From Rhodothermaceae bacterium bin80 (GTDB taxonomy: Bacteria; Bacteroidota; Rhodothermia; Rhodothermales; Bin80): DNA of 64,000 nucleotides. Position numbers and translations under genes: made by a program. This document shows positions 49,505-58,228 of this stretch, one piece after another. The notes below the pieces were generated by a model. It worked only from the letters and a program-made list of their open reading frames with translations, was not told the origin of the DNA and ran no database searches. The DNA lies in assembly GCA_002238805.1 (NCBI GenBank), contig MPNB01000001.1, forward strand, positions 71,957-135,956, read 5' to 3'. How positions within the stretch are numbered: the first letter of the stretch is position 1; the number at the start of each line of letters is the position of its first letter.

Positions 49505-49578
49505 CGGGGCGTAGCTCAGCCCGGTAGAGCGCTGCGTTTGGGACGCAGAAGTCGTCGGTTCAAATCCGGCCGCCCCGA
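49505..49578 (+). tRNA. tRNA-Pro(UGG)
   Basis: CGGGGCGTAGCTCAG..CTGCG-TT-TGG-GA-CGCAG..GTTCAAATC. Confidence 0.95.
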
Positions 49579-49611
49579 CTGGTGCGGATAAGTCAGTTCT
49601 ATTACATACAG

Positions 49612-52989: not shown

Positions 52990-54204
52990 TTATGCACAAT
53001 CTGCTAAAACACGATCAAGGAGAGCCGTAGCAACCTCCTCCTTCGGCATTACAGATAAAGGGTAGGAGGAGCCGTCTTTTCCCAGGAGCGTCACTCGATT
53101 GGTCCCTGTACCAAACCCGGCACCGTCCTCGGTCAGGTTATTGAGCACAATCCAGTCCAGGGTTTTTTCAACTAGCTTGCGGCGGGCATTGGTCAGATCG
53201 TTTTCGGTTTCCATGGCGAACCCTACCAGGGTTTGATGTTCCTGGCGATGCTTTCCGAGTTCTGCGAGGATGTCGGTGGTGCGGCGCAGTTTGAGTACGA
53301 GTTGGTCGGCCTCTTTCTTAATCTTTGAGGTATGAAATTCAGCGGGCGTATAATCTGCTACAGCAGCGGCCATAAATACAAAGTCCGCGCTCTGATGAAC
53401 CAGAACGGCTTCGAGCATCTCCGCACTTGTGAGAACATCAACCCGGTGGACACGGTCTGGTGTCTTGAGCAAAGTCGGACCTGTGACCAGCGTAACACGG
53501 GCTCCGCGTCTGGCGAGATCTTTGGCAAGCGTGAATCCCATGGTCCCGGTCGAATGGTTGGAGACAACCCGGACAGGGTCTATTGGCTCATAGGTAGGCC
53601 CGGCAGTAACCAGAGCATGCTTGCCACGAAGTTCTCCGGGCAGGAGTTCAGCAAGACGTTCAAGGATATCCTCTACATCGGGGAGGCGCCCGATCCCCAC
53701 GAGGCCACTGGCCAACTCCCCGTAGCCAGGTTCCAACACCTTATAACCTAGTTCCTGTAGGGCGAGAATGTTTGTTTTTACGGCAGGATGCAGGTACATA
53801 TCATGATCCATTGCCGGGCACACAAGAACAGGGCAGCGAGCGGCCAATGCGGTTGCAGTCAGCATGTTGTCTGCAAACCCGTGAACCAGCTTTGCCACAG
53901 TTTGCGCAGTGGCCGGAGCGATAAGGAAAAGGTCTGCCCAATGCCCTAAGGTTATATGTTTGGTCCAGGCATCCTCGTCTCCACTGTCGGTGAGTTCTGT
54001 AAGCACGCGGTGGCCTGAAAGGGTCGACAGGGTTGTTTTTGTGATAAACTGAGCAGCATCCCGGGTTGTGATAACCTGCACTTCAGCACCAAGTTTACGT
54101 AAGGCCCGGGTGATCTCAGCGGCTTTGTACGCCGCGATGCTACCGCTCACCCCCAGGAGGAGGCGCTTACCCTGCAAGTCACCAATTCGACTGGACTCAC
54201 TCAT
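52990..54204 (-). CDS. coaBC: Bifunctional PPC decarboxylase / PPC synthetase
   Basis: GSIAAYKA, APATA, PAMDHDM, VTAGPTYE, AAVADY, VGFAMET. Confidence 0.96.
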   Translation of the reverse strand: MSESSRIGDLQGKRLLLGVSGSIAAYKAAEITRALRKLGAEVQVITTRDAAQFITKTTLSTLSGHRVLTELTDSGDEDAWTKHITLGHWADLFLIAPATAQTVAKLVHGFADNMLTATALAARCPVLVCPAMDHDMYLHPAVKTNILALQELGYKVLEPGYGELASGLVGIGRLPDVEDILERLAELLPGELRGKHALVTAGPTYEPIDPVRVVSNHSTGTMGFTLAKDLARRGARVTLVTGPTLLKTPDRVHRVDVLTSAEMLEAVLVHQSADFVFMAAAVADYTPAEFHTSKIKKEADQLVLKLRRTTDILAELGKHRQEHQTLVGFAMETENDLTNARRKLVEKTLDWIVLNNLTEDGAGFGTGTNRVTLLGKDGSSYPLSVMPKEEVATALLDRVLADCA

Positions 54205-54755
54205 TGTTGGAGGTACGACTCAATCAGGGAAATAGCCTCAGTAGCAGCCTCATCAAGAGAATCGTTTACAACAAGGGCATCGAACTGATCCGCATAAGCG
54301 AGTTCGGTCTTGGCTCTCTGGAGGCGTGTGAGCAGGGTTTTGTCCGTTTCTGTCCCCCGGTCACGCAGACGTCTTTCCAGTTCAGCTTCAGAGGGAGGGG
54401 CTACGAAGATGAAAAAACCTCCGATGGAGGAGCGGACATTCGCGGCCCCCTTAACGTCGATATCCAGGAGGACCGGCCCCCCGACTTCTTTTGAGTTGAA
54501 ATGTGGAGTACCGTAGAAACAGCCGGGGTAGACCTCCTCGTACTCGAGGAGTGCACCCTCCGTGAGGAGACGCTCAAACTCAGGTAATGAGACAAAGAAA
54601 TAATCCTTGCCGTGCTTCTCATAAGGCCTCGGGGAACGCGTCGTCACCGAGACGGCCAGGTGCATACTGGGAAATGCATCCAGGACCCGCTGGGCAATGC
54701 TGGACTTTCCAGCACCGCTCGGAGCAGTCAGGCCAACAATTTTTTGACGGCTCAT
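54201..54755 (-). CDS. gmk: Guanylate kinase
   Basis: APSGAGKS, SVTTRSPR, GKDYFF, YGT, DIDVKGA. Confidence 0.95.
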   Translation of the reverse strand: MSRQKIVGLTAPSGAGKSSIAQRVLDAFPSMHLAVSVTTRSPRPYEKHGKDYFFVSLPEFERLLTEGALLEYEEVYPGCFYGTPHFNSKEVGGPVLLDIDVKGAANVRSSIGGFFIFVAPPSEAELERRLRDRGTETDKTLLTRLQRAKTELAYADQFDALVVNDSLDEAATEAISLIESYLQQ

Positions 54756-54914
54756 GGGCAGAAATGTCTTGTGGCCGGAGGTGAACAGCTTGATCCCCGG
54801 TTCACGTGGTTGGGAAGCTCCCAACCATGTACTTCGTTACCCAATCAGGCAAGCCCAGCATGGGGGTTCCAAGGGGCAGAGAACAGTGTCTGTTGTATAT
54901 GCCTGCATGGTTTG

Positions 54915-55002
54915 CGGAGAGGGAGGGATTCGAACCCTCGGTACCCGGTTAGGGTACACTCGCTTTCCAGGCGAGCCCGTTAGGCCGCTCCGGCACCTCT
55001 CC
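54915..55002 (-). tRNA. tRNA-Ser(GGA)
   Basis: GGAGAGG acceptor stem, CTCGC-CT-GGA-AA-GCGAG, long variable arm, GTTCGAATCC. Confidence 0.95.
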
Positions 55003-55571
55003 TATACTTCCATAATTTCCTTCTCCTTTTGACGAAGAAATTTGTCGATCGCTGACACGAAACGGTCTGTTTCCTTTTGCAGTCGCTCTTCGGCCAGGTA
55101 TCGCATGTCCTCCGAAAGGTGTTCTTCCTCCTGAGTGGTCTTTAACTCGTCCTTGGTGCTGCGTCGGATATTGCGGATGGCTATCTTTGACCGCTCACCG
55201 ATCTGCCGTACCCGCTTGCAGAGTTCTCTCCGACGCTCTTCCGTCAGAGGAGGAACCGGTACCCGGATGATCACGCCGTCATTGGAGGGGTTCAGTCCCA
55301 GATTGGCGGACATTATCGCTTTCTCAATGGCGTCAATAGAGGACTTATCCCATGGTGACACAACCAGAAGATCCGGCTGTGGCGCGTTTATGGAGGACAA
55401 TTGATTCAGGGGGGAAACACTGCCATAGAATTCAACCCTGACATTCTGCAGCATAGCAGGGGCCGCTCGACCCGCCCGGACAGCTCGCAACTCTTTGCCT
55501 AGATGTTGCATTGAGCGCTCCATATGGTCTACAGCATCTGACAGTATTAATTCCAGTAATTCGTCTAACAT
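55002..55571 (-). CDS. frr: Ribosome recycling factor
   Basis: VRAGRA, NLGLNPSNDG, PPLTEERR, IRNIRR, KEKEIMEV. Confidence 0.97.
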   Translation of the reverse strand: MLDELLELILSDAVDHMERSMQHLGKELRAVRAGRAAPAMLQNVRVEFYGSVSPLNQLSSINAPQPDLLVVSPWDKSSIDAIEKAIMSANLGLNPSNDGVIIRVPVPPLTEERRRELCKRVRQIGERSKIAIRNIRRSTKDELKTTQEEEHLSEDMRYLAEERLQKETDRFVSAIDKFLRQKEKEIMEV

Positions 55572-55588: not shown

Positions 55589-56347
55589 CTACTCCCAATG
55601 TACGTAAGAGCCCACTTTCGTTCCGCGAACAATTCGCTGTATATTTCCCGGTTCATTCACGTTGCAGATTACGATGGGCATCTTGGATTCCTCGCACAAC
55701 GTAAAGGCGGTCTTATCCATAACTTTCAGTCCCCGGCGAATGACCTCATGGCCGGCAATCGTAGCATAGTGTTTTGCGGTCTTGTGTTGCTCTGGATCAG
55801 CCGAATAGATTCCGCTCACTCGAGTAGCCTTGATGAGCACATCCGCGCCAATCTCCAAAGCTCTGAGTGCAGCAGCAGTGTCCGTAGTAAAGTACGGGTT
55901 GCCGGTTCCCCCGCCAAAAATGACCACACGTCCCTTTTCGAGGTGGCGTATAGCTCGTCGACGAATGAATGACTCGGCAATTTCTTCCATCTTGATGCTT
56001 GACTGCAGCCGTGTCTGGACACCCAGCTGTTCCAAGGCATCCTGAAGGGCCATGGCATTGATCATGGTGGCCAACATGCCCATATAATCACCATGCGCCC
56101 GGGTCATATTCCGGGTAGCAGCTGAAACCCCTCGGAATATGTTGCCTCCGCCAATTACAATGGCCAGTTCTACACCGGTTTCTGCTACAGCACGCAACTC
56201 TCCGACCCAGGCTGTAAGCACCTTGTCGTCGATACCAAAAGAAAGCCCTCCCTGCAGTGCTTCGCCACTGAGCTTCACAAGCACGCGCTTGTAGACAGAT
56301 TTTTGAGGTACAGGATTCGGCATAGTCGTGACCGCATGCGGGGTCAC
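55589..56347 (-). CDS. pyrH: UMP kinase
   Basis: KLSGEAL, GGGNIFRG, DYMGMLAT, GNPYFTTD. Confidence 0.97.
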   Translation of the reverse strand: MTPHAVTTMPNPVPQKSVYKRVLVKLSGEALQGGLSFGIDDKVLTAWVGELRAVAETGVELAIVIGGGNIFRGVSAATRNMTRAHGDYMGMLATMINAMALQDALEQLGVQTRLQSSIKMEEIAESFIRRRAIRHLEKGRVVIFGGGTGNPYFTTDTAAALRALEIGADVLIKATRVSGIYSADPEQHKTAKHYATIAGHEVIRRGLKVMDKTAFTLCEESKMPIVICNVNEPGNIQRIVRGTKVGSYVHWE

Positions 56348-57183
56348 TCACCCAGTGCACAGCGCACAAATTCACCAACGTTTGCTCCGGCCTTTTTCAG
56401 CACATCCCGAACGCGCAGCGAGGCATCTTTAACAAAAGGCTGCTCCACCAGGACATTGTCCTTGAAGAAGCGCTCCAGCTTACCTCTGGCAATCCGGTCC
56501 AGGAGGTTCTCCGGCTTGCCTTCAAGCCTTGCTGCTTCTTTACCGATCTCGAACTCTTTGTCCTGAATGGTCTGGGGCACGTTCTTGCGGTGCGCGGCAA
56601 GCGGGTTTAATGCAGCAATCTGCATAGCGACGTTTCGTCCTGTTTCCTCGAGCGAACCGGTACCTGAGAGTGTGACTAACACGCCCAGGCGGGAGCCGGG
56701 ATGGATATAGTCGATCACTTGACCCTCCTGAACAGAGAGGAGCGAAAAACGCCGAATCCCCAGTTTCTCACCAATCTTGCCGGTAAGATCTGTCAAGGCT
56801 TCGCCAACCGTACGACCATTCCTGAAGGGCAAAGCCAGCAACGCATCCAGGTCAGCGGGGCGTGATGAGAGAATAAGATCTGCCACCGCATTTGCGAAAG
56901 CATCAAACTCATCATTGCGAGCGACAAAGTCGGTTTCGCAGTTGACCTCAACGATGATTCCGGTGTGACCGGAATCGGAGATGCGGGTTAGAATGAGTCC
57001 TTGGAGTGCTTCGCGGTCCGCACGCTTTGCAGCAACACGCTGCCCCTTTTTACGCAAAAGGTCTACGGCAGCATCAAGGTCGCCACCTGCTTCACCGAGA
57101 GCCCGCTTGCAGTCCATCATCCCTGCACCGGTCATGTCGCGGAGTCGCTTGACATCCTTTGCTGAAATAGAGACCTGAGTCAT
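56344..57183 (-). CDS. tsf: Elongation factor Ts
   Basis: LRDMTGAGMMDCK, EVNCETDFVA. Confidence 0.97.
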   Translation of the reverse strand: MTQVSISAKDVKRLRDMTGAGMMDCKRALGEAGGDLDAAVDLLRKKGQRVAAKRADREALQGLILTRISDSGHTGIIVEVNCETDFVARNDEFDAFANAVADLILSSRPADLDALLALPFRNGRTVGEALTDLTGKIGEKLGIRRFSLLSVQEGQVIDYIHPGSRLGVLVTLSGTGSLEETGRNVAMQIAALNPLAAHRKNVPQTIQDKEFEIGKEAARLEGKPENLLDRIARGKLERFFKDNVLVEQPFVKDASLRVRDVLKKAGANVGEFVRCALGE

Positions 57184-57433
57184 TGGTTGTAGTCTTGTTG
57201 TTGCTAAAATCTTAGCAGGTTGCCAAAGTAGGAGATCATTAAGCCAAAGCATTCATGCCGGAGCAGCAAACGACATGCTCCGGGTACAATCACTGTCACA
57301 CAGTTTCGCACGGAGTTTTGAGTAGGCCGCCAGTCTGTGGCATAGTTGATTTTTGCAGGCTTGTAGGAGTTAAATCCGTTTATGTATTTTTGAACAGTTT
57401 CTGCCGGATACCCAGGCAGGACTAGAGTTCAGA

Positions 57434-58228
57434 TTATTTACGTGGCCTTTTCTTTCCTCGTCCCTCCTGACGCTTTTCCTGTTCCGCTTTTTTGTTGGCG
57501 GCGTTGATCTCCGCCTGTTTTCGTCCCTCATTTACGGCTTGGGCAATCGTATGCGAAATGATCTGGATGGACTTAAAAGCATCGTCATTGCAGGGAATGA
57601 CGTAATTCACCAGATCGGGGTTGCAGTTGGTATCGACCATGGCTATTACCGGGATACCAAGTTTACGTGCCTCGTTGACTGCGATGCGTTCCCGGCGCAT
57701 ATCCACGACGAAGAGGCACCCCGGAGTTCGGGGCATTTCAGCGATACCGCCGAGGTTTCGCTGAAGCTTCTCCAGTTCCCTGGATTTCATCAGGCGTTCT
57801 TTCTTTTTGAGTTGATCCAACGTTCCGTCTTTGCCCATCTTGGCCAGACTCTCCATACGACGGATACTGTTCCGGATCGTCTGAAAATTGGTCAATGTTC
57901 CTCCGAGCCAGCGTTCCACAACAAAGGGAGATTTGCAGGACTCTGCGGCTTCCCGGACGGTTTGCTTTGCCTGTTTTTTTGTTCCGACGAAAAGCACAGA
58001 TTTACCCTGCCGGGCAAAGCGTGTCGCCGTATCAGCTGCCCGGGAGAGCAGGTTTTGGGTCTGTAACAGGTCGATGATGTGGATTCCATTGCGCTGCATG
58101 AAGATGTAGCTACGCATCTTGGGATTCCACCGACTGGTTAGGTGGCCGAAGTGTGTTCCAGCCTTTAGAAGATCTTCTACAGAAACCCGGTGTTGGGTTG
58201 AACCGTGATCGGTTACGGGATTGCTCAT
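57434..58228 (-). CDS. rpsB: 30S ribosomal protein S2
   Basis: AGTHFGH, WNPKM, RWLGGTLTNF, DTNCNPD. Confidence 0.98.
   Translation of the reverse strand: MSNPVTDHGSTQHRVSVEDLLKAGTHFGHLTSRWNPKMRSYIFMQRNGIHIIDLLQTQNLLSRAADTATRFARQGKSVLFVGTKKQAKQTVREAAESCKSPFVVERWLGGTLTNFQTIRNSIRRMESLAKMGKDGTLDQLKKKERLMKSRELEKLQRNLGGIAEMPRTPGCLFVVDMRRERIAVNEARKLGIPVIAMVDTNCNPDLVNYVIPCNDDAFKSIQIISHTIAQAVNEGRKQAEINAANKKAEQEKRQEGRGKKRPRK

Follow-up and report, generated by a model that had tools for sequence, protein, structure and literature searches.

The stop codon of frr shares one nucleotide with tRNA-Ser(GGA) in a Rhodothermales lineage, probably as a tolerated by-product of spacer loss

Is a junction at which the stop codon of a protein gene and the first base of a tRNA are one and the same nucleotide a purpose-built switch, or is it a by-product that the cell can tolerate? 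This question is raised by the 3' end of frr, the gene that encodes ribosome recycling factor (RRF), within the window, by which we mean the whole 64,000-nucleotide stretch of DNA that was analysed. When translated from the ATG at 55571, frr yields a product of 189 amino acids, and its frame in the list of open reading frames ends at 55002. Residues 26–187 of the product match the Pfam domain RRF (PF01765; E = 2e-60), and the C-terminal ...IMEV is kept across the order at the loci of relatives. On the minus strand, the sequence at the junction reads ...ATG GAA GTA TAG, followed directly by GAGAGGTGCCGG. The Rfam tRNA model (RF00005) places its position 1 on 55002 and scored 55.6 bits, the gathering score being 29. 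In a thermodynamic fold of the region, the 7-bp acceptor stem GGAGAGG/CCUCUCC likewise begins at G55002. In all relatives that have a spacer between the two genes, GGAGAGG is the 5' end of the tRNA, and G55002 therefore belongs to the tRNA. The preliminary description of this DNA had assigned G55002 to tRNA position 1 and had drawn the 7-bp acceptor stem from it; ARAGORN, Rfam and the fold agree on this assignment. It is thus confirmed that the last base of the frr TAG doubles as the first base of tRNA-Ser(GGA). The coordinates of the features are given in Table 1.

Table 1. Features around the frr/tRNA-Ser(GGA) junction, and other tight junctions between a coding frame and a tRNA.
Feature	Position	Strand	Basis and remarks
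frr (ribosome recycling factor)	55571..55002	minus	189 codons plus stop TAG; ORF list, translation, Pfam
frr stop codon TAG	55002..55004	minus	G at 55002 is tRNA nucleotide 1
tRNA-Ser(GGA)	55002..54914	minus	ARAGORN; Rfam gives 55002..54915
pyrH-like ORF	55589..56347	minus	ORF list; 17-nt gap upstream of frr
tsf-like ORF	56344..57252	minus	ORF list; 4-nt overlap with pyrH start; own start codon uncertain
rpsB-like ORF	57434..58228	minus	ORF list; first gene of the co-oriented rpsB-tsf-pyrH-frr cluster
gmk-like ORF	54201..54755	minus	ORF list; start taken at the ATG before MSRQKIVGLTAPSGAGKS
9-bp GC-rich hairpin, no U-tract	54807..54827	minus	fold; 87 nt downstream of the tRNA, before gmk
Unassigned 150-codon frame and tRNA-Val(CAC)	G000:C123:50736-51265		gap 0
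MerR-like gene and tRNA-Pro(GGG)			gap 10 nt
tuf and tRNA-Trp			gap 11 nt

Three artefacts were considered for this junction. A mis-called stop codon was ruled out because the RRF domain reaches residue 187 of 189, and a pseudo-tRNA because the gene is the only Ser-GGA tRNA in the genome. A tRNA that begins one base later was ruled out by the 5' end of the tRNA in the relatives. tRNA-Ser(GGA) is present in a single copy among the 41 tRNAs found by ARAGORN in its own assembly, which is 94% complete, and it does not have an encoded CCA. With a tRNA recognised by two methods and a Pfam-positive CDS that lies upstream and overlaps it by at least 1 nt, the junction belongs to the class of same-strand CDS/tRNA overlaps.

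On the minus strand, the cluster rpsB, tsf, pyrH and frr is followed by tRNA-Ser, a gap of approximately 158 nt, gmk and coaBC; the gene names other than frr were taken from reading the translations. The hairpin in the gap was not called by the consensus terminator scan. It is possibly a transcript end or a processing signal; it may mark the end of the transcript, and terminators of this lineage need not resemble the E. coli consensus. Elsewhere in the window, tRNA-Pro(TGG) is located on the plus strand at 49505–49579. A small frame ends 11 nt before it, and the last 56 residues of this frame have a weak match to DUF4295 (24 bits, with a cut-off of 27 bits). The lineage itself is placed among sponge-associated Rhodothermales MAGs.

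frr was found in 59 of 61 related genomes, and at all 59 loci we measured how far the next tRNA lies from the stop codon of frr. A tRNA-Ser(GGA) on the same strand follows frr at 56 of these loci, which represent about 25 families. The remaining three are cut by contig ends, and two of them (L009 and L031) retain the tRNA start, GGAGAGGTG. The spacer ranges from −1 to 174 nt among the loci of the relatives. At the 58 assessable loci, it measures 51–174 nt in 22 cases, 12–32 nt in 6, 2–5 nt in 12 and −1 in 18, and a spacer of at most 5 nt is retained in several genera. In a wider sample of 80 frr loci, a tRNA follows frr at 16, of which 15 are genomes already counted and the sixteenth is a further Bacteroidota MAG with a gap of 54. 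The other 64 loci, which come from other phyla, have no tRNA after frr. Judging from these loci, the adjacency of frr and tRNA-Ser(GGA) is an old arrangement in Rhodothermales.

The 1-nt overlap itself is present in 17 of the 24 genomes of the genus (the genome of the window included, and L009 by sequence only) and in one genome of a sister genus (L025). In the other seven genomes of the genus, a rebuilt stop codon, which is TAA in five of them, is followed by 2, 4 or 5 new bases. Conservation in relatives, which had been named in advance as a check on the overlap, was therefore found in most of the genus and in one sister genus, whereas insertions of 2–5 nt have undone the overlap in the seven genomes. 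From the 1500 nt of coding sequence that precede the stop codon, a maximum-likelihood tree was constructed for 40 of the 58 loci by a 'quick' method, in which support is limited to SH-aLRT values; the branches of three rows are long, and the outgroup was not monophyletic. The 18 more distant loci (L036–L040, L042, L044–L046, L048, L050, L052 and L054–L059) were outside the tree. On this tree, the overlap must have changed state at least twice, by one gain and by one loss inside the genus, and the gain maps to the well-supported stem of L025 and the genus. These results indicate that the overlap is inherited and long-lived, yet has been undone without visible consequence. In addition, its presence at 18 of the 58 loci in one coherent clade shows that it is no one-off chance event. 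It persists across deep divergence, with RRF identity down to 68% and with the synonymous sites scrambled.

Because there is no spacer, there is no room for a terminator or a promoter between the two genes, and every complete frr transcript would run into the tRNA. A scan for σ70 promoters detected none on the minus strand. The TAnnTTTG box is absent from the minus strand of frr, pyrH and tsf, and the window holds 30 of these boxes in total, compared with 27 expected. In 24 sequences of the genus, the third-codon-position entropy of the last 20 frr codons was 1.17, which is equal to the gene mean and takes rank 70 among 170 windows of codons. Simple motifs and synonymous sites thus give no sign of a promoter inside frr, where a weak or unconventional promoter could escape detection. 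The arrangement resembles that of secG-leuU in E. coli: neither a promoter nor a terminator was found between frr and the tRNA, there being no spacer and no promoter-like site inside frr. As with secG-leuU, the protein gene and the tRNA that follows it would be carried on one transcript, to judge from the sequence.

It is nevertheless conceivable, although unlikely, that the tRNA is made mainly from a promoter of its own in the 3' part of frr; read-through transcripts, being translated, would then rarely be cut, and the overlap would have almost no effect on frr. It is generally known that the demand for a tRNA is usually far above that for one mRNA. Furthermore, Bacteroidota-type TTTG boxes are located 10–40 nt upstream of the tRNA in long-spacer relatives (for example, L028, L036, L039 and L056), and T-rich ...TTTTGC or TAnnTTTG-like boxes are located at the same distance upstream of tRNA-Gly(CCC), tRNA-Met (C22), tRNA-Leu(TAA) and tRNA-Tyr in the genome of the window (G000). 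It is therefore probable that in the ancestor tRNA-Ser was served by a promoter of its own, and the boxes suggest that the present Rhodothermales lineage uses promoters of the Bacteroidota type. The sequence CGnTTTGTn occurs approximately 57–60 nt upstream of the tRNA in several members of the genus. However, the TTTG of the genus depends on a synonymous Phe codon, for which the window has TTC and no TTTG. The rank of 70 among 170 shows no excess of synonymous conservation in the last 20 codons, and no promoter-like site was found on the minus strand. Moreover, full-length frr mRNA would still carry the complete tRNA and would remain a substrate of RNase P.

The ends of assembled transcripts were also considered. 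In four metatranscriptome runs, all from one study and available as assembled contigs only, the frr contigs end at 55002, 54998, 54998 and 54999. These ends, with no contig bridging into the tRNA, were rejected as RNA evidence since they come from contigs of a single study. A contig from a k = 31 graph ends 30 nt past a strain difference; L005, the closest relative, differs from the window at exactly 55032, and 55032 − 30 = 55002, so an end there is explicable by assembly. Nor does the lack of contig coverage at the tRNA's 5' half count as a finding.

RNase P cleaves immediately 5' of tRNA position 1, and this rule predicts a cut between 55003 and 55002. The genome encodes a type-A RNase P RNA (C104:14313-14721; 259 bits), one tmRNA with the tag ANDYSYAMAA, and SmpB (198 bits). 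We soundly infer that maturation of the tRNA would leave a stop-less frr mRNA ending in ...GUA-UA. ArfA (PF03889) had no match in the genome, and no RF-1-domain protein of the size of ArfB was found, PF00472 matching only two frames of 355–365 amino acids that were read as RF1 and RF2. Five closed genomes of the genus (G001, G003, G006, G011 and G017) have two PF00472 frames each, of 355–406 amino acids, and no ArfB was found in any of the five. tmRNA-SmpB appears to be the only ribosome-rescue system in the genus that is recognised with the ArfA and PF00472 queries. Since neither ArfA nor ArfB was found, there is no known route to untagged RRF, and the ArfA and PF00472 queries gave no factor for the tmRNA-independent release of an untagged product that marks genes of the arfA type.

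All 41 tRNAs of the genome were screened for long upstream frames. Outside the window, the TAG of rpe ends 10 nt inside tRNA-Arg(CCT) (G000:C58:14899-15624), and the 219-residue product of rpe matches the Pfam domain Ribul_P_3_epim (PF00834; E = 1.2e-67). Thirty loci of relatives were examined for this pair, of which L141–L163 overlap. The 10-nt overlap was observed in all eight loci of the clade to which the window belongs. In all 15 other loci of the genus, the rpe frame extends 39 nt into tRNA-Arg(CCT) and ends with a TAA in the anticodon loop, and approximately 12 C-terminal residues of their rpe product come from tRNA sequence. In one other genus, 6 nt separate rpe from the tRNA, and at six more distant loci there is no tRNA close by. 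Besides the tight junctions before tRNA-Pro(GGG) and tRNA-Trp, there is the 150-codon frame whose TAA abuts tRNA-Val(CAC); it has a Cys-rich N-terminus and no Pfam match, and is a putative gene. The rpe overlap and these tight junctions indicate that overlap of a CDS with a tRNA is a habit of the genus and is not peculiar to frr. By post hoc arithmetic across differing methods, the two overlapped tRNAs out of 41 are an approximately 20-fold excess over the roughly 0.2% (250 per 115,660) that can be derived from a large survey (PMC4131195). Such an excess hints at a property of this lineage for which pure neutrality does not account.

We consider the most probable reading, with a probability of roughly 0.6, to be that the overlap is a tolerated by-product of the loss of the spacer between frr and a co-transcribed tRNA, and not a purpose-built switch. 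frr and tRNA-Ser(GGA) would be an old, co-oriented and most likely co-transcribed pair of Rhodothermales, whose spacer shrank and then vanished in the ancestor of the genus and its sister, leaving TA-G common to the stop codon and the tRNA. The graded series of spacers (51–174, 12–32, 2–5 and −1 nt) was counted in favour of such a loss. Each maturation of a read-through transcript by RNase P would strip the G of the stop codon from the frr mRNA. tmRNA-SmpB would rescue the ribosomes that arrive at the resulting ...GUA-UA end, and RRF that carries the tag would presumably be degraded. Only an insertion that rebuilds the stop codon undoes the overlap, which is therefore hard to escape and would be passively inherited.

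The overlap would be tolerated because its cost would be small, and the secG-leuU co-transcript of E. coli gives an indication of this cost. RNase P frees the tRNA there by cutting once, 14 nt downstream of the secG stop codon, and the secG mRNA then has a half-life of less than 30 s owing to exonucleases (Mohanty & Kushner, NAR 2008, PMC2241853). Among the 40 3' ends of secG reported there, 32 were inside the coding sequence and 8 kept the spacer. The secG cleavage product retains its stop codon thanks to the 14-nt spacer, whereas the frr product would lack it. Since the secG mRNA is rapidly lost despite this spacer, the loss of one stop base would add little. A severed mRNA with only a few spare nucleotides would lose its stop codon to 3' exonucleases almost at once, and the 1-nt overlap would therefore be near-neutral. 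On the other hand, the long persistence of the overlap and of spacers of 5 nt or less could reflect selection for a tight junction.

The preliminary description had gone further and had proposed that the junction couples the RRF level to tRNA processing and trans-translation, with a ribosome at the stop codon shielding the cut site as feedback. In such a circuit, a ribosome on UAG would block both the folding of the tRNA and the RNase P cut, and the cut would make the frr mRNA a non-stop mRNA that is cleared by tmRNA. Scarce RRF would lead to lingering ribosomes, intact frr mRNA and more RRF, and plentiful RRF to cutting and removal. The geometry of the junction permits this, and a ribosome on UAG would cover the first 10 or so nucleotides of the tRNA in its mRNA channel. 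All 189 codons would survive the cut, which changes only the fate of the product, and many relatives retain a junction of at most 5 nt. In E. coli cells depleted of RRF, moreover, post-termination ribosomes stay at stop codons and in 3' UTRs, tmRNA is impaired, and ArfA, the product of a non-stop mRNA, rises 39-fold (PMC7538156). However, any gene that ends beside a tRNA would be subject to the same shielding, and in the same genus rpe, which is unrelated to recycling, overlaps a tRNA more deeply than frr does. The 22 loci with spacers of 51–174 nt show that the adjacency did not arise for that purpose, and the overlap has reverted in 7 of the 24 genomes of the genus. Neither ArfA nor ArfB was found in the genome of the window, nor ArfB in the five closed genomes. 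We therefore regard homeostatic control of RRF by this junction as improbable. Given the reversions, the rpe overlap and the lack of a route to untagged RRF, the proposed coupling is unsupported. The non-stop mechanics of the original interpretation can be upheld as a prediction from the absent spacer, the single-copy tRNA, the RNase P RNA, tmRNA and SmpB.

arfA offers a further comparison. Cleavage of the arfA mRNA by RNase III makes it non-stop, and tmRNA tags the product (PMC7538156). Both genes would have their expression tied to trans-translation by an endonuclease that cuts constitutively, within the stop codon or upstream of it. They differ in that the enzyme here would be RNase P acting at a tRNA instead of RNase III acting at a hairpin, and no backup release factor was found. 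Moreover, no pattern of conservation points to regulation. In Carsonella, smpB overlaps ssrA in half of the strains only, and a feedback idea has been raised for it (PMC4131195). The mRNA of a quality-control gene would be made non-stop by maturation of an adjacent stable RNA in both cases; the genome of Carsonella is, however, extremely reduced and the partner is ssrA, while the genome studied here is unreduced and has an ordinary tRNA as the partner.

A bolder form of regulation, in which the frr/tRNA-Ser junction acts as a sensor of recycling capacity and tRNA-punctuated stop-less messages such as those of frr and rpe are a regular control layer of the genus, is very doubtful. Parked ribosomes would keep the acceptor stem unfolded, and a shortage of RRF would prolong the life of intact frr mRNA and would spare RRF from tagging, as with the crippled tmRNA of RRF-depleted E. 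coli. An excess of RRF would clear the site for the cut, after which the frr message would become a tmRNA substrate.

Least credible of all is a completion of the stop codon as in animal mitochondria, where excision of tRNAs leaves U or UA and polyadenylation completes the stop. The frr CDS also abuts a tRNA, excision would leave exactly UA, and an added A would recreate UAA, so that the frr mRNA would not be truly non-stop. The secG mRNA freed by RNase P in E. coli is indeed acted on by poly(A) polymerase and PNPase, but tails on bacterial RNAs mark them for decay (PMC2241853). The genome has only one PF01743 gene (poly(A) polymerase or CCA-adding enzyme), which is presumably needed as CCA-adding enzyme because tRNA-Ser(GGA) has no encoded CCA; no dedicated poly(A) polymerase was found, and the rpe overlaps of 10 and 39 nt are beyond such repair. 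Unlike that of mitochondria, the genome is 4 Mb in size and has ample intergenic DNA, for example the approximately 158 nt after the tRNA.

The general idea of such junctions was published in 2014 (Hudson, Lau & Williams, Front Microbiol 5:421, PMC4131195). Among 115,660 valid t(m)RNA genes of 2031 genomes, that survey counted 379 same-orientation overlaps with Pfam-positive CDSs, with the CDS upstream in 250. It proposed these overlaps as high-frequency sources of non-stop mRNA and traced them to few evolutionary events, within closely related genomes. The present case resembles this class in that a Pfam-positive CDS lies upstream of, and overlaps, a valid tRNA on the same strand, a non-stop mRNA is predicted, and the overlap is restricted to related genomes and to one and the same tRNA. 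In contrast to the cases described in the survey, frr loses one base of its stop codon only, and the whole protein is still encoded. The top case in the survey is FtsW/RodA with tRNA-Ile-CAT in Helicobacter, whereas two different genes are involved in one genus here. The main text of the survey has no match for frr, and a literature search yielded neither a paper on an frr/tRNA overlap nor an experiment that tested a CDS/tRNA overlap. With the frr/tRNA-Ser junction, this rare, already published class gains a further and well-documented member.

The presence of two housekeeping genes that overlap tRNAs in one non-reduced genome is mildly unusual. It is also a caution for annotation, since gene callers frequently shorten or omit one feature where two overlap. 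If the cut occurs as predicted, an essential translation factor and a central enzyme of the pentose-phosphate pathway would be translated from messages whose stop codons are routinely lost, and tmRNA-SmpB would be the only rescue system found for the frr and rpe messages. The genus would then be a natural test bed for the tolerance of non-stop mRNA and for the competition between translation and tRNA maturation.
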